Shown here piece after piece: positions 3,104 to 55,560 of a stretch of 64,000 bases of DNA. Source of the stretch: an uncultured Clostridia bacterium (GTDB lineage: Bacteria; Acidobacteriota; Aminicenantia; UBA2199); NCBI GenBank assembly GCA_964562095.1, contig CAZLSH010000002.1, positions 9,597 to 73,596 of the forward strand, written 5' to 3'. A program made the position numbers and the translations under genes. Within the stretch, counting starts at the first letter, position 1, and every line of letters starts with the position of its first letter. A model generated the notes under the pieces. The model ran no database searches. It was not told where the DNA came from and worked only from the letters and a program-made list of their open reading frames with translations.

Positions 3104-4671
3104 GACGCGAAATTATTCTGGCGCCGTCGAGCACGGCGGAGGTGAAAGACCGGTTGTTCGTGGAGTTGGGGCTGGCCGCTGAAAATCCAGGCGCCTGCCA
3201 TGGCCCCTGGCTCGGCGCGCAGGGTGCCGCGATCGCCAGCCGTACCCCGATCGACGGCAGCCTGCTGGCCACGGTGCGCGTTGCGGGCGGAGACGATTAC
3301 GAAACCGTCGTGGCCAGCGCAATGGAGGCGTTCCGGTCATGGCGCTGCGTTCCCGCTCCACGGCGCGGCGAGGTGATCCATGCGCTCGGAAATGAGCTTC
3401 GGCATTGCAAGGATTCGTTGGGCACCCTGATTTCCATGGAAATGGGAAAGATCAAGGAAGAAGGGGATGGCGAGGTCCAGGAGATGATCGATATCTGCAA
3501 TTTCGCCGTAGGGCTATCCCGGCAGCTGTATGGCAAATCGATGCATAGCGAGCGGGTCGACAGCCGCATGTACGAACAATGGCAGCCGCTGGGGGTCGTC
3601 GGCCTGATCACGGCATTCAACTTTCCCGCCGCGGTATGGGCGTGGAATTTCGCCATTGCCGCGGTCGCGGGCGATGTGACGATCTGGAAACCCTCGTCGA
3701 AAACGCCTCTGACAGCCATCGCCATCACCCGCATCGTTCAGCGGGTACTGGCGGAAGCGGGATTCGCGGGCGCTGTCGCCTCGCTGCTCATCGGCAGCGG
3801 CGCCGGGATCGGCGAGCGGCTGATCGCCGACCGGAGATTGGCGCTGATCTCCGCCACCGGTTCGACCCGCATGGGGCGGCGCATCGGGCGGGTGGTGGGC
3901 GAGCGGCTGGGACGCACTCTGCTCGAACTGGGAGGGAACAACGCCATGATCGTCAGCGAACATGCCGACCTGCCGCTGGCCCTGCAGGCGACGCTCTTCG
4001 GCGCGATCGGGACGGCGGGCCAGCGCTGCACCTCCACCCGCCGGCTATTCGTGCAGGAGAGCGTCCATGAACGTTTTCTGGGCAGCCTGGTCGAAGCCTA
4101 CCGCCAGGTCCCCATCGGCGACCCCTTGCTGCCGGGAACCCTGATGGGGCCCCTGGTGGACCCGCAGGCGGTTGCCGACATGCAGCGGGCGCTGGCCAGG
4201 CTGGCGGAGGCAGGTGGCCTTATCCTCTGGGGCGGGGAACCTCTCGCCGGTCCGGGATTTCCTGGCGGCGCTTATGTGCGGCCCTGCCTGGCCGTGGCCG
4301 AGAACCGGTGGCCGGTGGTCCAGGAGGAAACTTTCGCCCCGATCCTGTATGTCATGAAGTATCGCACGCTGGACGATGCCATCGCCATGCAGAACGACGT
4401 TCCCCAGGGATTGAGTTCGGCCATTTTTTCGGAGCGGCTGCGCGAAGCGGAGCAATTCCTTTCGCAGCGGGGCAGCGACTGCGGCATTGCCAATATCAAC
4501 ACCGGCACCAGCGGGGCCGAGATCGGCGGGGCTTTCGGCGGCGAGAAAGACACCGGCGGCGGACGCGAATCGGGTTCCGATGCCTGGAAGGCCTACATGC
4601 GGCGGCAGACGGTCAACCTCAACTGGGGATCAACCCTGCCGCTGGCCCAGGGCGTCCGCTTTTCGTTCTGA
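3100..4671 (+). CDS. ALDH7-family aldehyde dehydrogenase (alpha-aminoadipic semialdehyde / piperideine-6-carboxylate dehydrogenase-like)
   Basis: Long colinear similarity to antiquitin-type ALDH7 (GEVQEMIDICNFAVGLSRQLYG, ITAFNFPAAVWAWN, ELGGNNA, GTAGQRCTSTRRLF, ETFAPILYVMKY, GIANINTGTSGAEIGGAFGGEKDTGGGRESGSDAWKAYMRRQT). The start overlaps the upstream stop (ATGA), with an AAGGAG RBS. Confidence 0.85.
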   Translation: MRREIILAPSSTAEVKDRLFVELGLAAENPGACHGPWLGAQGAAIASRTPIDGSLLATVRVAGGDDYETVVASAMEAFRSWRCVPAPRRGEVIHALGNELRHCKDSLGTLISMEMGKIKEEGDGEVQEMIDICNFAVGLSRQLYGKSMHSERVDSRMYEQWQPLGVVGLITAFNFPAAVWAWNFAIAAVAGDVTIWKPSSKTPLTAIAITRIVQRVLAEAGFAGAVASLLIGSGAGIGERLIADRRLALISATGSTRMGRRIGRVVGERLGRTLLELGGNNAMIVSEHADLPLALQATLFGAIGTAGQRCTSTRRLFVQESVHERFLGSLVEAYRQVPIGDPLLPGTLMGPLVDPQAVADMQRALARLAEAGGLILWGGEPLAGPGFPGGAYVRPCLAVAENRWPVVQEETFAPILYVMKYRTLDDAIAMQNDVPQGLSSAIFSERLREAEQFLSQRGSDCGIANINTGTSGAEIGGAFGGEKDTGGGRESGSDAWKAYMRRQTVNLNWGSTLPLAQGVRFSF

Positions 4672-4831: not shown

Positions 4832-6640
4832 ATGAGCGAAGCGATCAAACTGACCGTGGACGGAAAAGAAACGGCCGTCGAGCCCGGAACGACCATTCTG
4901 GAAGCCGCCCGTCAGCTGGGCATCCGCATTCCCAGCTTGTGCTACCACCCCAACCTTTGTCCCACCGCCTCGTGCGGGATCTGCGTAATCGAGATTGCCG
5001 GCATATCCGGGCTGAAACGCTCCTGCTGCACTCCGGCCGAGAACGGCATGAAAGTGACGACCAACTCCAGGACCCTGCGTTCCCTGCGCAAGACACTGGT
5101 CGAACTGATCCTCTCCAACCATGCCAGCGAGTGCCCGACCTGCGTGGCCAATGGCAGATGCGAACTGCAGGATCTGGCCAACGCCATGGGCGTCGATTTC
5201 AACCGCTTCCAGCGCATTGTGGCTGACAAGCCGGTCGACGAGTCCAGCCCAGCGGTGCATCGCGATCCGAAGAAGTGCATCGCCTGCGGCCGCTGCGTCA
5301 CCGTCTGCAACGATATCCAGTCGGTGGCGGCGATCAGCATGGTCAACCGCGGTTTTGACGTCAGTGTCAACACATTTTTCAACGAGGGGCTGGGACGCAG
5401 CGCTTGCGTCAACTGCGGCCAATGCACCGTGTTCTGCCCGACCGGCGCCCTGCGCGAGCGCGGCGAGACCGACGATGTCTGGAACGCCATTCTCGATCCG
5501 GGCAAGATCGTCGTGGTTCAGGAAGCGCCCTCCATCCGCGTCACCCTGGCCGAGGAATTCGGCATGGAGATGGGCACGGTGACCGTGGGCAAGATGTACG
5601 CCGCCCTGAAAAAGATGGGTTTCGATTATGTGTTCGACACCAACTTCACCGCTGATTTAACCATCATGGAGGAGAGCAGCGAACTGATCGGGCGCGTGAA
5701 GAACGGCGGTCTGCTGCCGCTGATCACGTCCTGCTCGCCGGGTTGGATCAAGTTCATGGAGACTTATTTCCCTGACCTGGCCGGCCAGACCTCAACCTGC
5801 AAATCGCCGCAGCAGATGTTCGGGACCCTGGTCAAGACCTATTTTGCCAGGGAAAAAAGCCTCGACCCGGCCAGGATCGTTTCGGTTTCGATCATGCCCT
5901 GCACGGCCAAGAAATTCGAAGCGGACCGTCCGGAAATGTGCGCTTCGGGATACCGGGATGTCGACTACGTATTAACCACCCGCGAATTCGTGCGCATGAT
6001 CAAGGAAGCCAAGATCGATTTCAAGAACCTGCCCGCTGAAAGTCCGGATGAACTGCTGGCCAGCTATACCGGGGCTGCCACGATTTTCGGCGCCACCGGA
6101 GGGGTCATGGAGGCTGCCATCCGCTCGGCCTATTTTCTGCTGGCCGGAAAGAACCTCGCTGATCTGGATGTCAAGGCTGTCCGTGGCCTGGAAGGGATCA
6201 AGGAGGCCACACTGACCATCCCGGCCCAGGGGTTGGGTGACCTGACCGTCAAGGTGGCCGTGGCCCACGGCCTGGGCAATGCCCGGTCCCTGATGGACAA
6301 GGTGCGTGAGCAGATCCGCACTACCGGTAAAAGCGAATATGCCTTCATCGAGATCATGGCCTGCCCCGGCGGCTGCGTCGGTGGCGGCGGCCAGCCATAT
6401 GGCAGCGTCATTGCCGACCGCGCCCGTCGCGGCGAGGGGCTCTACCGCGAGGACAGGGGCATGGCCAAGCGCCAATCCCACGACAACCCCGGCGTCCAGC
6501 TCGTCTACGAGAAATTCCTCGGCCATCCAGGCTCGGAGATGTCCCACAAGTTGCTGCACACACATTATTTCGAGCGCAGCCTGCTCAACGGGGCTTGCGT
6601 CAAGGAAGCGACCCGCAAGCCCGCCGGGCACCACGGTTGA
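4832..6640 (+). CDS. hydA: [FeFe]-hydrogenase catalytic subunit, CpI-type (N-terminal 2Fe-2S, His-ligated 4Fe-4S, two ferredoxin 4Fe-4S clusters, H-cluster domain)
   Basis: H-cluster motifs IMPCTAKKFE (L2) and EIMACPGGCVGGGGQP (L3); L1 reads TSCSPGW rather than canonical TSCCPxW. Accessory clusters: CYHPNLCPTASCGIC, HASECPTCVANGRC, CIACGRCVTVCN, CVNCGQCTVFCP. Followed by hydF-hydG-hydE. Confidence 0.9.
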   Translation: MSEAIKLTVDGKETAVEPGTTILEAARQLGIRIPSLCYHPNLCPTASCGICVIEIAGISGLKRSCCTPAENGMKVTTNSRTLRSLRKTLVELILSNHASECPTCVANGRCELQDLANAMGVDFNRFQRIVADKPVDESSPAVHRDPKKCIACGRCVTVCNDIQSVAAISMVNRGFDVSVNTFFNEGLGRSACVNCGQCTVFCPTGALRERGETDDVWNAILDPGKIVVVQEAPSIRVTLAEEFGMEMGTVTVGKMYAALKKMGFDYVFDTNFTADLTIMEESSELIGRVKNGGLLPLITSCSPGWIKFMETYFPDLAGQTSTCKSPQQMFGTLVKTYFAREKSLDPARIVSVSIMPCTAKKFEADRPEMCASGYRDVDYVLTTREFVRMIKEAKIDFKNLPAESPDELLASYTGAATIFGATGGVMEAAIRSAYFLLAGKNLADLDVKAVRGLEGIKEATLTIPAQGLGDLTVKVAVAHGLGNARSLMDKVREQIRTTGKSEYAFIEIMACPGGCVGGGGQPYGSVIADRARRGEGLYREDRGMAKRQSHDNPGVQLVYEKFLGHPGSEMSHKLLHTHYFERSLLNGACVKEATRKPAGHHG

Positions 6641-6659: not shown

Positions 6660-6687
6660 AAGGGCAGCGCGCGGCGGCCCTTTTTTA
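6660..6687 (+). terminator. GC-rich hairpin plus T6, candidate intrinsic terminator after hydA
   Basis: GGGCAGCGCGCGGCGGCCC followed by TTTTTT, 20 nt after the hydA stop. Confidence 0.4.
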
Positions 6688-9400: not shown

Positions 9401-10453
9401 ATGGACCTCCAGGAGCGCCTGCAGCGGCTGTATCGCGAGCCGAACCGCGGCGACCTGATCCATTTTCTTGCCACTCCCGATATGAACGAGGTCGGGTGTT
9501 TGTACGACTTCGCCGACCGCGTGCGTCGCGAGCATGTCGGCGACGCCGTTCACCTGCGGGCCATCGTCGAGTTCTCCAGCTTTTGCCGCAACGACTGCCT
9601 CTACTGCGGCCTGCGCCGCTCCAACCACGCCCGCCGCCGGCTGCGCATGCCTCTGGATGAGATCGTCGCCCAGTGCCGACGGGCGGAGACGCTCGGCTTT
9701 CGCACGGCAGTACTGCAGTCGGGCGAGGACCCGTTCTACGGCCGCGAGGCGATCGCCGGCCTGGTGCGCCGGGTGAAGGCGGAGACCGGCCTGGCCGTCA
9801 CCCTGGCGGTGGGGGAGAGGAGCGAGGAGGAGTACCGGGCCTTCTTCACGGCCGGAGCCGACCGCTACCTGCTCAAGCACGAGACGTCGGACCGCGAGCT
9901 CTACGAGAGGCTCGACCCGGGTCTGAGCCACGAGCGGCGCATCGGCTGCCTGCGGCTGCTGAAGCGCATCGGCTTCCAGACCGGCAGCGGCATCATGGTC
10001 GGCCTGCCGGGACAGAGCCTGGAAAGCATCGCCGACGATATCCTGCTGTTCCGCGACCTGGACCTCGACATGATCGGCTGCGGCCCGTTCATTCCGCACC
10101 CGGCGACGCCACTGGCAGCGGAGCCGCCGGGAAGCGAGGAACTGACCTACCGCGTGCTCGCCCTGGCGCGACTTGTCACCCGCGACACCCACATCCCGGC
10201 CACCACCGCCCTGGCGGTCACGGCCGGCGACGCCGGGCGCGCCAGCGCCCTGTGCCGCGGCGCCAACGTGGTCATGCCCAACATTACCCCCCAGCCCTGG
10301 CGCGGCGCCTACGAAATCTATCCCAGCAAGGGGCGGACGGAGGTCTTTGACCCGTCCCTGCTGGAGCGGCTGCGGCGGACGCTCTGCGAGCTGGGACGTT
10401 TCATTGCCGAGGACGCCGGCGAACGGGTAGGATTCCCCCATTCGATTTCTTGA
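9401..10453 (+). CDS. hydE: [FeFe]-hydrogenase maturase HydE (radical-SAM, biotin-synthase-like)
   Basis: Radical-SAM CRNDCLYC motif, a 350-aa BioB-like fold, and its start overlaps the hydG stop (TAGATG). Confidence 0.85.
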   Translation: MDLQERLQRLYREPNRGDLIHFLATPDMNEVGCLYDFADRVRREHVGDAVHLRAIVEFSSFCRNDCLYCGLRRSNHARRRLRMPLDEIVAQCRRAETLGFRTAVLQSGEDPFYGREAIAGLVRRVKAETGLAVTLAVGERSEEEYRAFFTAGADRYLLKHETSDRELYERLDPGLSHERRIGCLRLLKRIGFQTGSGIMVGLPGQSLESIADDILLFRDLDLDMIGCGPFIPHPATPLAAEPPGSEELTYRVLALARLVTRDTHIPATTALAVTAGDAGRASALCRGANVVMPNITPQPWRGAYEIYPSKGRTEVFDPSLLERLRRTLCELGRFIAEDAGERVGFPHSIS

Positions 10454-27240: not shown

Positions 27241-27292
27241 CAAGGCAAACGGCAAAGGGAAAAAGGCAAAAGTGAGGAAAGAGGCCCTGCAA
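27241..27292. repeat. GGCAAA-rich purine-arm repeat (partial copy of the intergenic hairpin-element family)
   Basis: CAAGGCAAACGGCAAAGGGAAAAAGGCAAAAGTGAGGAAAGAGG resembles the arms at 34727 and 45350. Confidence 0.35.
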
Positions 27293-34726: not shown

Positions 34727-34885
34727 CACAAGGCAAAAGGCAAAAGTAAAAAGGCAAAAGTGAAGAGAGCATTCCCAGAACTCCATATGGATTTGCCTCC
34801 ATTTCTATCCGGGCAGGGAAAGGCGAAATGAGAGTGCATCTTCCCAACTTTTGCCTTTTGCCTTTTGCCCTTTGCCTTTCTTTCC
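34727..34885. repeat. Intergenic long imperfect hairpin element: GGCAAAAG-rich arm, ~75-nt loop, CTTTTGCC-rich arm
   Basis: Left arm CAAGGCAAAAGGCAAAAGTAAAAAGGCAAAAGTGAAGAGAGC. The right arm CTTTTGCCTTTTGCCTTTTGCCCTTTGCCTTTC is its approximate reverse complement. Located directly after the eno stop. Confidence 0.5.
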
Positions 34886-36127: not shown

Positions 36128-36248
36128 TGGCGAGTGGTAGTGTTCGTGATAGTGTTAGTGAAGATATTCAAGTCATTTCCATTGAATTTCATGCCATTCA
36201 TGATATATTCTCGCCGGGGAACAGATTTTTATTGATTGGAGTGAAACG

Positions 36249-41095: not shown

Positions 41096-41440
41096 GTGAA
41101 GCCCTGGTATCTCTACCTGGTGCGCTGCGGCGACGGCACGCTGTACACCGGCATCTCCAACGATGTGGATCGCCGCCTGGCCGCTCATGCTGCCGGCAGG
41201 GGAGCGCGCTACCTGCGCGGCCGCGGCCCCCTGACCCTGGCCCGCAAGGTCCGGGTCGGCAGCCATGGCGATGCCCTTACGGCGGAACGCAGGGTCAAGC
41301 GCTTGGGGCGGGATAGAAAAGAAAAGCTAATCCAGGGCAAGATCAGGTTGAAAGATTTGATTGAGGAAGACGTCAGACGCCAGACGTTAGACGTTAGCAA
41401 GAAAAAAAAATTCAAGAACAAAAAGGCAGGAACTGAATAA
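41096..41440 (+). CDS. GIY-YIG nuclease superfamily protein (UPF0213/YhbQ-like)
   Basis: The motif WYLYLVRCGDGTLYTGISNDVDRRLAAH is a GIY-YIG core; the start is GTG. Confidence 0.7.
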   Translation: MKPWYLYLVRCGDGTLYTGISNDVDRRLAAHAAGRGARYLRGRGPLTLARKVRVGSHGDALTAERRVKRLGRDRKEKLIQGKIRLKDLIEEDVRRQTLDVSKKKKFKNKKAGTE

Positions 41441-41551
41441 TTCGTATCGGCGAATATTTGTTCGCTGGTTCTTTAAGCGCCTGGCTAACATCTAACATCT
41501 AACGTCTAACGTCTTTCGCTTGCTGACGTCTAACATCTAACGTCTAATGCC
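41381..41551. repeat. Heptamer tandem-repeat element: ACGTTAG x2, then CTAACAT/CTAACGT x4 and x3 (inverted orientation)
   Basis: CAGACGTTAGACGTTAGC ... CTAACATCTAACATCTAACGTCTAACGTC ... GACGTCTAACATCTAACGTCTAATGCC. It lies between the convergent GIY-YIG and rubrerythrin-like genes and overlaps the GIY-YIG 3-prime end. Confidence 0.6.
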
Positions 41552-41558
41552 TTCTTCC

Positions 41559-42026
41559 TTAGCCTCCTGAAGTCTGCGGGAAGGCGGTGTTCGAGTATAA
41601 GTATTCGACCTTTTCCTTGTGCTTGAGCTCCTGGTTGGCCATGGCCATCAGCATCTCCCTGACCTCACCGGCGGGCTGCAGGGCGGCGAGTGCCTTGTAG
41701 AACTGGTAGGAGTTCCACTCGCGGTGGGCGGCGACCAGGTAGACCTCGCTCGTGTTCATGTTCTTCTTGGGATCGGGCTTGGCGGCGTACTGGGCGACGT
41801 GGTAATCGATGGGCGTATCCATGCCCAGGCCGCTGAGTTTCTTCTCGCCCCTGAGGTAGCCCTGCAGGAACTCCTTGTGGGCCAGTTCCTCGCCGGCCAG
41901 GAACTTCAGGGTCTCCCTGGCCAGGGCGTCCTCGACCAGGTCGTGCAGGCCGAGGTAGAAGGCGCGGGCTTCCTCCTCGTTGCGGATGGCGGTCTCGATC
42001 AGGCTTTGCAGGTTTTGTGTTTCCAT
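41559..42026 (-). CDS. Rubrerythrin/ferritin-like diiron domain protein
   Basis: Two E...ExxH diiron half-sites (EELAHKEF, ELKHKEKVE); 155 aa. Confidence 0.6.
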   Translation of the reverse strand: METQNLQSLIETAIRNEEEARAFYLGLHDLVEDALARETLKFLAGEELAHKEFLQGYLRGEKKLSGLGMDTPIDYHVAQYAAKPDPKKNMNTSEVYLVAAHREWNSYQFYKALAALQPAGEVREMLMAMANQELKHKEKVEYLYSNTAFPQTSGG

Positions 42027-44935: not shown

Positions 44936-45149
44936 GATGCTCCATCCTGGGGAATGAAATGCCATGGTAGCACAACTGGAAAAATATTCAATGGCCGGCC
45001 GGGGAGGCCCGCTGCAGGAATTCCTCCCCGGACGGCTGCATCGCCACTTTTTCGGGAATCCTCCGAAACCGGTTTTCTGATCGGTTGGCGGTAGACGGTG
45101 GCTGCCATCCAATGAAATCGGTTTGCGGTGGAAGGTCAAAGAAGAAAGT

Positions 45150-45430
45150 GTTAGTGATCGTGTTAGTGTTAGCAGGAGAGCAGTGACTTCGGTTGCAATC
45201 ATTGTAATCGGTTGACGGGTGACGGTTTACGGTTTTCGGGAAGAGAAGTTCCCGCCATCTCTTGTTCTTTCTCATCACGCATCACGCATAACGCATAACG
45301 TAATCCGTGTCACGCGTTACGAAGTTCGTTCCTATTTCAATGCCAGTTCTTCACTTTTGCCTTTTGCCTTTTTACTTTTGCCTTTGTCTCACCCTTCGCC
45401 TTATGCCCTGCGCCTTGCGCCGGGCTCGCT
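45150..45430. repeat. Repeat-rich intergenic region: GTGTTAGTG-type heptamers, CGGTTGACGGGTGACGGTTTACGG, CATCACGCATCACGCATAACGCATAACG, then a CTTTTGCC-rich arm
   Basis: Several distinct short tandem repeats lie within ~280 nt, between the AmpG-like stop and the PilZ start. They share motifs with the elements at 36135, 41381 and 34727. Confidence 0.5.
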
Positions 45431-46984: not shown

Positions 46985-47100
46985 TCAGGGAAGAAGCGGG
47001 AAGAGTGAGGGAAAGGCAGAGGGAAGACAAAGTGGGACAAGCGGTCATCAAGGGCTTATCCCGCTCTCTCTTCCCTCGTTCTTCCCTCTGTCTTCCCTTG
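46985..47100. repeat. GGGAAGA-type long imperfect hairpin element (copy 1), overlapping the tilS 3-prime end
   Basis: Purine arm GGGAAGAGTGAGGGAAAGGCAGAGGGAAGACAAAGTGGGACAAG, a loop, then pyrimidine arm CTCTCTCTTCCCTCGTTCTTCCCTCTGTCTTCCCTTGAATCTTCCC. Both arms contain CAGAGGGAAGA(C/A)A in opposite orientation. Confidence 0.55.
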
Positions 47101-48469
47101 AATCTTCCCTTAGTTCGCTGGATTTCAGGCCGATGCGGATGAAGGGCCCCTTTGCGCCGTCCCGGACGGCGAAGGGGGCGGCGACGGGCGATCGGCAAAC
47201 CCAGATGATCTCGCCATCGCCGTTTTCCAGCAGCGGGCAGAGGCGGCGCAGCGGCGCCGGCACGCCCGAAGCGCGGATCATCTCAAAGACGCTCTGTTCG
47301 TAGGGGGAATGGATCTTGCGGTACTTGTCGCCGCGGCGGGCCGGGCGCAGACGCAACGGGAAGCGCAGCTTCTTTTCCGCCACCAGGATCTCGAAGTTGT
47401 CCCCGGGCAGGCGGAAGCGGGCGGTCTTTTTCACGATGAGGCTGCGGCCGATCTCCGGGATGGGCCATTTGCCGGCGCCGCCGATCTCCAGGCGGTAATC
47501 GCCGATGCGCACCTTCTCCGGGAAGATCCAGCCCTTGGCGAACTTCAGGTTCAGCCCGGGCAGGGAGAGGCCGCGACCCGTCTCCACGCTCTTCATGAAA
47601 TCGGCGATATGCTCGTAGCCGACGCCCAACAGGTCGCCCTTGACCCGGCGCAGGTATTCGCGGGCCAGGTGCCGCGCCAGGGCCGGGTGCAGGCCGGTGA
47701 AGGCGGCTGCCGGCAGAATGGTCCTCATGAGCAGTTGTTGGTCCAGGATGGCGCTGGCCGCGCCCTGAAAAAAGTCGAACTCGTCCTGAATCAGCAGCAC
47801 CGTGCGCAGTATCCGCTCATCGGCTTCGGGCTCGATGGCCCGGGCCGCGGGCATGAGCAGGTGGCGGATGCGGTTGCGCAGGAAGTCGTGCTCCAGGTTG
47901 GTCGGGTCCCGGTAATACTCGATGCCGTTGCGTTCCAGGAAGGCCAGGATCTCCGCCTCGGAGAAGATGAGCAGCGGCCGGACGATCCGCTTCTCCTTGC
48001 TGGCGTAGATCGCCGATAGTCCTTGCAAGCCGCTGCCGCGGAAGAGCTTGATAAAGAAGGTTTCGGCCAGGTCGGAGCGGCTGTGGGCAGTGGCGATGCG
48101 CGGGCCGGGGTAGCGGCCGGCCAGGCAATGGAAGAAGTCGTAGCGCGAGAGCGAAGCGGCGTGCTCGAGGTTCAGGCGCTTCTCCTCGCGGAAGCGCTCC
48201 ACGTCGCGGCTGCCGGTCTCCAGTTCGATGCCGCGGGCGGCGCAGAAGTCGCGCACCCATTTCTCCTCTTCCCGGGCGTCGTCGCGCAGGCGGTGGTTGA
48301 AATAGGCGGCGACCATCCGGAAGCGGAGGGCCTTTTGCAGTTCCTGGAAGAGCAAGGCCAGGGTGACCGAGTCCTTTCCCCCGGAGAAACCGAGGATGAC
48401 CGTGTTGCCGGGGCGGACGAGTCCGTGGTCCTGGATGTTTTTTTTGAATTCCGGGAACAGGATATTCAT
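47048..48469 (-). CDS. tilS: tRNA(Ile)-lysidine synthetase
   Basis: The PP-loop ILGFSGGKDSVTL and a TilS-length, two-domain protein. The last ~17 codons run into the hairpin element, so the true C-terminus may be shorter. Confidence 0.8.
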   Translation of the reverse strand: MNILFPEFKKNIQDHGLVRPGNTVILGFSGGKDSVTLALLFQELQKALRFRMVAAYFNHRLRDDAREEEKWVRDFCAARGIELETGSRDVERFREEKRLNLEHAASLSRYDFFHCLAGRYPGPRIATAHSRSDLAETFFIKLFRGSGLQGLSAIYASKEKRIVRPLLIFSEAEILAFLERNGIEYYRDPTNLEHDFLRNRIRHLLMPAARAIEPEADERILRTVLLIQDEFDFFQGAASAILDQQLLMRTILPAAAFTGLHPALARHLAREYLRRVKGDLLGVGYEHIADFMKSVETGRGLSLPGLNLKFAKGWIFPEKVRIGDYRLEIGGAGKWPIPEIGRSLIVKKTARFRLPGDNFEILVAEKKLRFPLRLRPARRGDKYRKIHSPYEQSVFEMIRASGVPAPLRRLCPLLENGDGEIIWVCRSPVAAPFAVRDGAKGPFIRIGLKSSELREDSREDRGKNEGRESGISP

Positions 48470-48519
48470 CGCCCCCTCGGGTTTCTTCCTCTCCGCGGAG
48501 AAGAAAGAGTAGCGGCGGA

Positions 48520-48592
48520 GGGAATTGAACCCCCGACATAACGGATATGAGCCGTCTGCTCTACCGACTGAGCTACGCCGCCATCAGGAGCC
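48520..48592 (-). tRNA. tRNA with anticodon CAT (elongator Met or Ile2-lysidine type); no encoded CCA
   Basis: The reverse complement folds as a cloverleaf: acceptor GGCGGCG/CGCCGCT, D-arm GCTC-AGTCGGT-AGAGC, anticodon stem GACGG/CCGTT with loop CTCATAT, T-arm GGGGG-TTCAATT-CCCTC. It has a G1-U72 pair and lacks initiator-type features. Confidence 0.85.
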
Positions 48593-48640
48593 AATTATAC
48601 CCGAAACAGGGCTGCCATGCAACAGAGCAGGTCTTCAGGG

Positions 48641-48770
48641 AAGGCAGGGAGAAGAAAGAGGGAAAGGCAGAGGGAAGACAGAGTGGGAAAGAAGTCGATT
48701 ACGGCTATTCTCACTCTCTCTTCCCTCATTCTTCCCTTTGTCTTCCCTCTGACTTCCCTTTATTTCGTCA
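48641..48770. repeat. GGGAAGA-type long imperfect hairpin element (copy 2)
   Basis: GAAGGCAGGGAGAAGAAAGAGGGAAAGGCAGAGGGAAGACAGAGTGGGAAAGAAG, a loop, then CTCACTCTCTCTTCCCTCATTCTTCCCTTTGTCTTCCCTCTGACTTCCC. The core is >80% similar to copy 1. Confidence 0.55.
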
Positions 48771-54781: not shown

Positions 54782-55458
54782 GATCGCCCGGGCTCTTCCT
54801 GATCGCCGGCGATCCCGGCCGCCGCAACGCCCGGCGCGACCCGCTGCTGGAGGAGGTCCTGGCGCGCCTCGGCCTGGCGCGGCCCTGCGTGGCTTACATA
54901 GGGGCCGCCAGCCGCGACAACCGCCTCTTTTTCCTGTGGATCTCCGCCCTGCTGAAGAAGGCGGGGGCGGGTACTGTGCGCCTGGCGTCCCTGGCCGGGC
55001 GGCGGGCCGTCCCGGCGCAGGCCCGGGCGGTCGCGGAGGGCGCCGACGTCGTTTTCATCAGCGGCGGCGACGTCGGCCTCGGCATGGGCCTCCTGCAATC
55101 GACGGGCCTCGACGGTCCTCTGCGCGGCCTCCATCGCGCCGGCATGCCGTTCATCGGCCTGTCCGCCGGCAGCATCATGCTGGCCCGCAGCTGGGTGCGC
55201 TGGGCCGACCCGGACGACGACGACAGCGCCGCCTCCTTCCCCTGCCTGGGGCTGGCGCCGCTGCTCTGTGACACCCATGGCGAGGGCGAGGATTGGCAGG
55301 AACTGCGGAAGCTTTTGCGCCTGACCGGCGAGCCGATCGGTTTTGGCATCCCCGCCGGCGCCGCCCTGACCGTCGGCAGCGGCGGTTTCCTGGCAGCGAT
55401 GGGCAAGCCCGTGCAGCAGCTTACCGCGACGGGGAACTTGGACGATCTGAAGCTCTGA
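54778..55458 (+). CDS. Peptidase S51 (peptidase E/cyanophycinase-like) family protein
   Basis: VVFISGGDV and the catalytic-Ser motif GLSAGSIM. A GTG start overlaps the upstream stop (GTGA). Confidence 0.55.
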   Translation: MRSPGLFLIAGDPGRRNARRDPLLEEVLARLGLARPCVAYIGAASRDNRLFFLWISALLKKAGAGTVRLASLAGRRAVPAQARAVAEGADVVFISGGDVGLGMGLLQSTGLDGPLRGLHRAGMPFIGLSAGSIMLARSWVRWADPDDDDSAASFPCLGLAPLLCDTHGEGEDWQELRKLLRLTGEPIGFGIPAGAALTVGSGGFLAAMGKPVQQLTATGNLDDLKL

Positions 55459-55560
55459 ACCGATTGTTCGTGATTCGTAATTCGTGATGCGCAAAGGCAA
55501 CAGCCGAGCCATCGCGGTTTTCTTCCGAATGACGAATTCGCCTTGCGAATTACGACGCAC
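55455..55560. repeat. Short imperfect inverted/tandem repeats (TTCGTGATTCGTAATTCGTGATGCG ... GCGAATTACGACGCAC)
   Basis: The intergenic stretch after the S51 gene contains CGTGAT/CGTAAT units and a partial reverse-complement partner. Confidence 0.3.

Follow-up and report, generated by a model that had tools for sequence, protein, structure and literature searches.

An extragenic hairpin with tandem-heptamer arms in Candidatus Aminicenantes, and the population of repeat-armed hairpins to which it belongs

Heptamer repeats in the intergenic regions of bacteria have been noted since 1990, and inverted pairs of such repeats since 2009-2015. We describe here one such pair, found in a stretch of 64,000 nucleotides (positions 9,597 to 73,596 of contig CAZLSH010000002.1), hereafter the window, from a metagenome-assembled genome (MAG) of Candidatus Aminicenantes (Acidobacteriota) with 63% G+C. 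The pair forms a hairpin, labeled H2, at positions 41363-41557 of the window, between the 3' ends of a GIY-YIG domain gene and a rubrerythrin gene. It is of the same kind as the hairpins of the short tandemly repeated repetitive (STRR) elements of cyanobacteria, and as the heptamer pairs, likewise inverted, of Xanthomonas and Geobacter metallireducens. The kind was known before from other phyla, and the window adds a new phylum to it. Three further observations seem to be new, namely the replacement of one arm family by another at orthologous junctions, the duplication of whole hairpins, and a bias of stop codons toward the 5' arm. According to Mrazek (2007), as quoted in PMC4679880, no class of long simple repeats is more abundant in prokaryotes than heptanucleotides.

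Hairpins made of STRR heptamers exist in cyanobacteria, in four species for example between hupS and hupL, and a raised transcript stability or transcription termination has been proposed as their role (PMC2670836). The repeats of the window share with them a unit of 7 nt, a copy number of about four, an intergenic location, several unit families per genome, inverted blocks that fold into a hairpin, located between genes or at their 3' ends, and presence at the same site in several species. They differ from them by their host, by stems of 30-55 bp and loops of 16-276 nt, and by additional periods of 6, 8 and 11. The units themselves are not the same: those of STRR1-3 are CCCCAGT, TTGGTCA and CAACAGT, and the ones found here are GAYGTTA, AAGGCAA, CGTGATT and others.

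In Xanthomonas, most GGGAATC repeat arrays are four units long, and each genome has 70-75 inverted pairs of them (Rehm et al. 2015, PMC4692102); they are more frequent in convergent than in divergent gaps, and their gene positions are not conserved between related species (PMC4692102). The arrays described here are likewise mostly four units long, intergenic, often in inverted pairs and more often convergent than divergent, and their sites are not kept between species. Xanthomonas, however, has one dominant G-rich unit that is able to form G-quadruplexes, where the present lineage has many A/T-richer units without that ability. In Geobacter metallireducens, three copies of TCTCCGTS(Y) or five of MTYCTGA lie on opposite strands at a variable distance (Aklujkar et al. 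2009, PMC2700814). Tandem units (of 7-9 nt there), inverted pairs, a variable spacer, multiple families and an intergenic location are common to both cases; in contrast, the Geobacter sites are read as sites of the global regulators IHF or HU and are associated with the insertion sites of insertion sequences, neither of which is seen here. Finally, marine Beggiatoaceae and cyanobacteria carry TAACTGA direct repeats (MacGregor 2015, PMC4679880), which resemble ours in being intergenic tandem heptamers with stop codons and a patchy phylogenetic distribution. Those of Beggiatoaceae are nearly all direct repeats just upstream of start codons, with a single inverted case reported; the arrays here are inverted and lie past stop codons.

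Other comparisons are more distant. Repetitive extragenic palindromic (REP) elements all have the same conserved sequence, 20-40 nt long, with copies in the hundreds, are linked to the REP-associated tyrosine transposase (RAYT), and are thought to stabilise the upstream mRNA. Like REP elements, bacterial interspersed mosaic elements (BIME) and the inverted REP doublets called REPIN, the hairpins of the window are extragenic palindromes near stop codons or between co-transcribed genes, the inverted doublets form long hairpins, and whole hairpins can be duplicated (H4 and H5, below). Unlike them, their arms are built of tandem units of 6-11 nt from many families, and H2 is single-copy: the CTAACRT unit was found at one locus in the window and, in 296 kb of related sequence, at the orthologous locus alone. 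No transposase was found among the 10 window proteins scanned against Pfam, a scan that was not aimed at RAYT. In a CRISPR array, unique spacers of comparable length alternate with repeats of 23-50 nt; the units of H2 are 7 nt and contiguous, as an earlier note on this DNA had rightly observed. In the DNA sampled, H2 does not reach the copy numbers of REP or REPIN elements, nor does it match a CRISPR array, an intrinsic terminator or a phase-variable locus, the last two for reasons given below.

The main stem of H2 pairs a left arm (41363-41401) with an outer right arm (41519-41557), over about 39 bp. The left arm contains, at 41368-41394, the four heptamers AGACGTC, AGACGCC, AGACGTT and AGACGTT followed by AG. 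The outer right arm contains CTGACGT, CTAACAT, CTAACGT and CTAATGC (41523-41550) and then CTTCTTCC. Between the arms lie a spacer (41402-41484), which holds a run of nine A (41402-41410) and a small internal hairpin GGCGAATATTTGTTCGCT, and an inner right block (41485-41514) with CTAACAT, CTAACAT, CTAACGT, CTAACGT and CT, an alternative partner for the left arm. The unit of the arms reads GAYGTTA on the rubrerythrin-sense strand, with its complement on the opposite strand. The units are 7 nt long, head to tail and present in at least three copies, and Tandem Repeats Finder reports arrays at 41368-41394 (3.9 copies), 41485-41514 (4.3) and 41529-41547 (2.7).

The earlier note had counted two ACGTTAG units followed by seven CTAACAT or CTAACGT units in the opposite orientation. 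The two are exact, at 41384-41397, with two further degenerate units upstream; the seven correspond to six exact units (41485-41512 and 41530-41543), flanked by the degenerate CTGACGT (41523) and CTAATGC (41544). The 64-kb window contains eight exact CTAACRT units, for 2.9 expected, all of them inside 41384-41543. Dimers with up to two mismatches also number 8, for 0.22 expected, a number not attained in any of 100 shuffles. These repeats are not an assembly artefact, since two independent metagenome assemblies carry them, in loci that are 100% (L001) and 99.9% (L002) identical to the window.

Folding confirms the earlier suggestion that the inverted blocks form a hairpin, and a very stable one on both strands. 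As RNA, the rubrerythrin-sense (minus) strand reaches a minimum free energy of -77.4 kcal/mol (z = -7.2), and the plus strand -69.3 kcal/mol (z = -6.8); folded as DNA, the plus strand, the sole strand so folded, reaches -33.8 (z = -4.1). The 39 positions of the stem comprise 31 Watson-Crick pairs, 5 that are wobbles on the minus strand and 3 that are wobbles on the plus strand, and no other mismatch. The stem starts 2 nt past the stop codon of the rubrerythrin gene, so that H2 is part of its 3' untranslated region, and it extends beyond the heptamers into flanks that are not repeated. When the outer block is blocked, the alternative hairpin through the inner right block still reaches -67.0 kcal/mol. 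A search of 41300-41620 against Rfam gave no match at E up to 10, and at gathering thresholds the whole window yielded a single hit, a tRNA elsewhere.

A stable stem-loop at the 3' ends of genes is what one expects of an intrinsic terminator, and the earlier note had listed bidirectional terminators among the possible functions. The conjecture that H2 is a true bidirectional terminator for its two convergent genes draws on its position between their 3' ends, where no other terminator is predicted, on the stability of its stem on both strands, and on the (CTAACRT)n hairpins of other organisms, some of which carry T-runs behind them, as in metagenome contig L141. An intrinsic terminator, though, has a short G+C-rich stem, a loop of 3-8 nt and a U-tract directly behind. 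The stem of H2 is 3-5 times longer and its loop, of 90-117 nt, 10-30 times longer; neither a U-tract nor an A-tract flanks the stem, and a terminator and promoter scan reported no terminator-like site at 41341-41558, and no canonical promoter at the locus either. Canonical terminators, with a G+C-rich stem and a T-run, do occur at other gene ends of the window (near 6660, 12090, 20490, 40770 and 56680), from which we conclude that ordinary intrinsic terminators are used alongside the repeat-armed hairpins. Moreover, a sister hairpin, H1, stands between two co-directional genes and ends about 44 nt ahead of the next start codon: termination there would silence the downstream gene, so that a full terminator is unlikely at H1, and an intercistronic stability element fits better. 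The classical form of terminator is thus set aside for H2, and a true bidirectional terminator is improbable.

H2 is not an isolated curiosity of its locus. We counted arrays of at least three copies in 296 kb of Aminicenantes sequence, made of the window and of loci L003-L020 from its relatives, and, for comparison, in loci of other phyla with the same gene at their centre, 894 kb in all. Period-7 arrays occur at 21.3 per 100 kb in Aminicenantes and 2.35 in the other phyla, or about nine times more often; for period 6, the densities are 12.8 and 0.56. Non-coding DNA, 14% of the total, holds 57 of the 70 period-7 arrays. In the window alone there are 13, compared to a mean of 0.8 and a maximum of 3 in block-shuffled copies. 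The arrays are A+T-richer than the genome, and at least ten different units can be found in one genome. The earlier idea of a dispersed class of short tandem repeats is therefore half right: the wider population of intergenic arrays is real, but it is not one CTAACRT family.

Many of these arrays come in inverted pairs. We found 31 such pairs, whose gapless pairing scores run from 14 to 38, when random windows have their 99th percentile at 16.4; the flanking genes are convergent for 12 of them, co-directional for about 17 and divergent for only 1. The long stems measure 30-55 bp and the loops 16-276 nt, and units of period 6, 8 or 11 occur besides those of period 7. In the window, all five repeat-armed hairpins (H1, H2, H4, H5 and H6) start 2-23 nt past a stop codon. 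Stop codons are unevenly distributed over the arms: in 34 hairpins from the window and L003-L017, with arms on both strands, 153 stop codons fall in 5' arms and 67 in 3' arms, the 5' arm having more of them in 21 hairpins, fewer in 7 and as many in 6. The 5' arms contain more G than C in 25 of the 34, with the AAATTCC family as the main exception. When a unit of 7 or 8 nt bears a stop codon, three copies of it close all three reading frames, which may be the reason why units are not multiples of three.

The behaviour of the arms over evolutionary time is best seen at the junction of the rubrerythrin and GIY-YIG genes, for which we collected orthologous loci from GTDB species representatives. 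Hairpins built of four different units occupy this junction: GACGTTA in the window, L003, L007, L010 and L008; CGTGATT/CGTAATT in L004 and L011; GTGACRA in L014, L015 and L017; and the 8-nt GTAGAAGG in L005, L006, L019 and L203. A solo GTAGAAGG array, without a clear inverted partner, is found in L013. When the arms of all species are compared in a matrix, pairing scores are 12-36 within a unit family and 8-14 across families, and on the gene tree, which is weakly resolved, the families are interleaved. The enolase/MFS (major facilitator superfamily) junction behaves similarly, with AAGGCAA, GTAGATGA or AAAGGTA hairpins according to the species. The complementarity of the arms is conserved while the sequence of the unit changes.

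Within the GACGTTA family, 5 species share the stem of about 38 bp, and its arms co-vary: many changes are one-sided and preserve pairing, turning U-G into U-A or C-G, and three pairs have changed on both sides. The remaining mismatches are mostly of the type that pairs as U-G on the rubrerythrin-sense strand, with ratios of 8:1, 8:2, 8:0 and 5:3, and a general base skew fails to explain this asymmetry. Stem energies lie between -53 and -64 kcal/mol on that strand, and between -38 and -47 on the opposite one. From this bias in wobbles and energies we infer an action as RNA.

The reading that we favour, with moderate confidence, is that H2, an extragenic hairpin with tandem-heptamer arms and one member of a population that spans the lineage, is an RNA stem-loop at the 3' end of an mRNA. 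Transcribed from the rubrerythrin gene, H2 would act as RNA, its stem of about 39 bp folding 2 nt past the stop codon. Such a stem could protect the 3' end of the message against 3' exonucleases, or process or define that end; it could also limit overlap of, or read-through between, the two convergent transcripts, a role similar to the one supposed for REP and STRR stem-loops. A 7-nt unit that contains UAG or UAA would, in three copies, close every reading frame before the stem begins. The arrays may have arisen and grown by replication slippage, and their arms may have stayed complementary through selection for pairing, through the copying of arms or whole hairpins, or through both. An action as a DNA cruciform is disfavoured because extrusion would not be easy with loops as long as these, of 16-276 nt.

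Several observations weigh against this reading. In L011 and L014, the wobble asymmetry runs the other way. Among co-directional hairpins (L003, L004, L008, L010, L013, L017 and H1), the antisense strand is the better paired in 10 cases out of 15, and the mismatches are G-U on it and C-A on the sense strand, a tendency for which a general base skew does not account. Used to tell an RNA function from a DNA function, the balance of G-U and C-A is clear for the GACGTTA family and inconsistent overall. H2 has neither a U-tract nor any canonical terminator signature. Numerous comparative cases are orthologous to one another, and independent sites or families number about 10-16. Finally, the hairpin is dispensable: it is missing from the site in L009 and L018, the latter having nothing at the rubrerythrin/GIY-YIG junction, and the 20-kb loci of L018 and of L204-L207, all Aminicenantes with a G+C content of 0.57-0.61, contain no short-tandem-repeat array at all, which makes the trait lineage-specific within the class. 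In L009 (1965-2040), compared to L006 (2258-2400), about one unit per arm is left between identical flanks; judging from these remnants, the site looks like the product of an internal deletion across the palindrome and not like an empty site.

We now turn to the other repeats of the window, starting with the hairpins. H1 (34730-34878), in the enolase-MFS gap, has AAGGCAA and CTTTTGC arms, starts 23 nt past the enolase stop codon, and folds with z-scores of -9.1 on the plus strand and -5.9 on the minus strand; these scores, like those of the other hairpins listed here, come from mononucleotide shuffles. H4 (46985-47113), between tilS and an MFS gene, has period 11 (AGGGAAGACAA / TCTTCCCTCNN) and z-scores of -10 (plus) and -12.9 (minus). 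H5 (48637-48765), also of period 11, is a second copy of the H4 element with z-scores of -8.9 (plus) and -7.2 (minus); it starts 15 nt past the stop codon of a TPM-domain gene and adjoins a tRNA gene (48510-48582, minus strand). H6 (55462-55560) is weaker (-2.7 plus, -2.1 minus) and starts 4 nt past the stop codon at 55456-55458; its arms are TTCGTGA/TTCGTAA, or CGTGATT as a unit. A further candidate, H3, which would pair 45209 with 45273, was rejected as a hairpin, its z-score being about 0.

Several solo arrays occur as well. An AAGGCAA array at 27242-27272 does not fold. A hexamer array AGTGTT/AGTGAT, also without a fold, lies at 36133-36160, just past the stop codon of the MFS gene. A cluster of arrays at 45147-45421, in an intergenic region of 494 nt, combines AGTGTT (period 6), CGGTTGA, CATMACG, CTTTTGC and CCTTGCG; folding this cluster produced no strong hairpin. 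Three places in the window had been grouped with H2 in the earlier note, as a single dispersed CTAACRT/GTGTTAG family, and that grouping did not survive. The tandem GTGTTAG/GTGATAG reported at 36140-36165 and 45155-45180 is really the period-6 AGTGTT/AGTGAT, at 36133-36160 and 45147-45172, a different unit with no inverted partner nearby and no fold. The block reported at 55455-55500 consists of a third unit, TTCGTGA/TTCGTAA at 55467-55485, with a weak inverted partner of its own. No CTAACRT unit exists elsewhere in the window, and the sites that had been linked to H2 are made of different units.

The main rival of the RNA stem-loop is a selfish or neutral palindromic repeat with no host function, tolerated in the intergenic DNA past stop codons, either as a non-autonomous element akin to REPIN or to miniature inverted-repeat transposable elements (MITE), moved by an unknown enzyme, or as a by-product of slippage and fold-back template switching. 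In its favour, hairpins and arms are copied between loci. An element of about 130 nt is present in two direct copies, H4 and H5, one at each side of tilS; over 92 nt their identity is 84%, and both have sharp ends at the base of the stem. The left arm of H1 (34736-34760, including the variant unit AAAGTAA) has an exact reverse complement, 25 nt out of 25, at 45361-45385, 10.6 kb away; it is found again at 27241-27275, with 91% identity, as the solo array 7.5 kb upstream, a direct copy. In L003, a module laden with repeats exists in three copies. Unit families have thus been dispersed by copying. The same families at different loci, interleaved on the gene tree, point in the same direction, as does the comparison of L003 and L004, in which flanks are 83-98% identical and homology ends exactly at the hairpin, and as does the variable presence of hairpins, absent from L009, L018 and L204-L207.

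The same hypothesis meets several obstacles. Of the marks of a MITE, the inverted arms are present, and H4 and H5 provide two copies with sharp ends, but neither a target-site duplication nor conserved termini were seen at H4 and H5. Loops are unique to each locus, and the units remaining in L009 indicate an internal deletion. Other unit families (that of H4 and H5, and AAGGCAA) reach 2-4 copies; the CTAACRT hairpin is single-copy, at H2 in the window, and limited to the orthologous locus in the 296 kb of related sequence. Finally, the consistent spacing of 2-23 nt after stop codons and the excess of stop codons in 5' arms suggest constraint. We consider a selfish or neutral origin possible, though less probable than the RNA stem-loop that we favour.

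The duplicated module of L003 deserves a description of its own. It is an inverted duplication of about 350 nt, in which 2102-2453 and 6030-6404 are 75-90% complementary, with a third, partial copy at 4133-4301. This intergenic module has nested blocks of CAGTGT, AGTGTT, CGCGTCA, CGGTTGA and AAATTCC, and borders on about 3.6 kb of genes. Possibly the segment can invert or move.

One may go a step further, and speculate that an active process as yet unknown copies a restricted set of families of 6-11-nt units between the 3' ends of genes and swaps them at orthologous sites. We regard this as doubtful. If true, it would imply a new templated or mobile palindromic element whose stop-codon-bearing strand is always on the 5' arm, and a dedicated enzyme that is present where repeats abound (this clade, some Syntrophaceae, Xanthomonas and Nostoc) and absent from repeat-free relatives. 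The clade lends itself to such questions, since it forms a natural comparative series, with the same junctions carrying hairpins of different units or none, and with both repeat-rich and repeat-free relatives: one can ask whether hairpins shape mRNA 3' ends, and whether a gene tracks their presence.

The diversity of units also bears on the suggestion, made in the earlier note and proposed for Geobacter metallireducens, that inverted arrays are double-stranded DNA sites for a nucleoid-associated or regulatory protein. The architecture is indeed like that of the paired opposite-strand sites at variable distance of Geobacter (PMC2700814), and the A+T-richness of the arrays relative to the genome agrees with it. 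However, one protein cannot read at least ten unrelated units in one genome and four different units at a single orthologous site, and a sequence-specific DNA-binding protein is disfavoured for this reason; besides, it is the complementarity of the arms that is conserved, not their sequence, and the stems reach past the repeats into flanks that are not repeated. This explanation is very unlikely.

The genes that surround H2 raise a last alternative. The GIY-YIG gene (41096-41440, plus strand) and the rubrerythrin/ferritin-like gene (41559-42026, minus strand; 155 amino acids, PF02915) converge on the heptamers. The left arm of H2 overlaps the last codons of the GIY-YIG open reading frame (ORF), whose tail enters the loop, and a heptamer is not a multiple of 3: a change in copy number could then switch expression, or the frame of the tail, in the manner of a contingency locus. 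The run of A at 41402-41410 does vary, with nine A in the window and L001 and ten in L002, which shifts the frame of the GIY-YIG tail. Against this, the number of heptamers is the same in the three assemblies, only the run of A being different, so that the replication slippage put forward in the earlier note is a plausible origin of the arrays without making them visibly hypervariable. The tail is also a poor target: the domain match is confined to residues 4-75, the predicted L203 ortholog has 90 amino acids, and the frame depends on the run of A, all of which indicates that the tail is probably not conserved coding sequence. A contingency locus is the least probable of the explanations considered. 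The ORF of tilS (47048-48469) also seems to be extended into a hairpin arm, and repeat arms account for such spurious C-terminal extensions in the annotation of both genes.

A tie between the repeats and the neighbouring GIY-YIG nuclease gene was considered and rejected, since hairpins of this sort are also found next to enolase, MFS, tilS, TPM and PDZ-protease genes. A scan of metagenomes for (CTAACRT)3 contradicts it as well. The scan matched at least 120 contigs, with G+C contents from 0.30 to 0.68 among the matches listed; we fetched 80 loci, none of which encodes GIY-YIG or rubrerythrin, and about 25 of which have an inverted partner. The CTAACRT unit is thus widespread in unrelated organisms.

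Among these unrelated contigs, (CTAAYAT/GACGTTA)n hairpins were seen in L098 (7290-7400), L158 (about 890-960) and L141 (about 2420-2540); their contexts include a position between two tRNA genes, another immediately past a stop codon, where the loop is almost absent, and, in L141, a T-run behind the hairpin as in a terminator. Several inverted heptamer arrays per 20 kb were also noticed in L062, L073 and L075, from MAGs of Deltaproteobacteria/Syntrophaceae, for example with the units AAAGGTA/TCACCTT, GCTCATA/AGCTATG and AGTTTAA/TTTAAAC.

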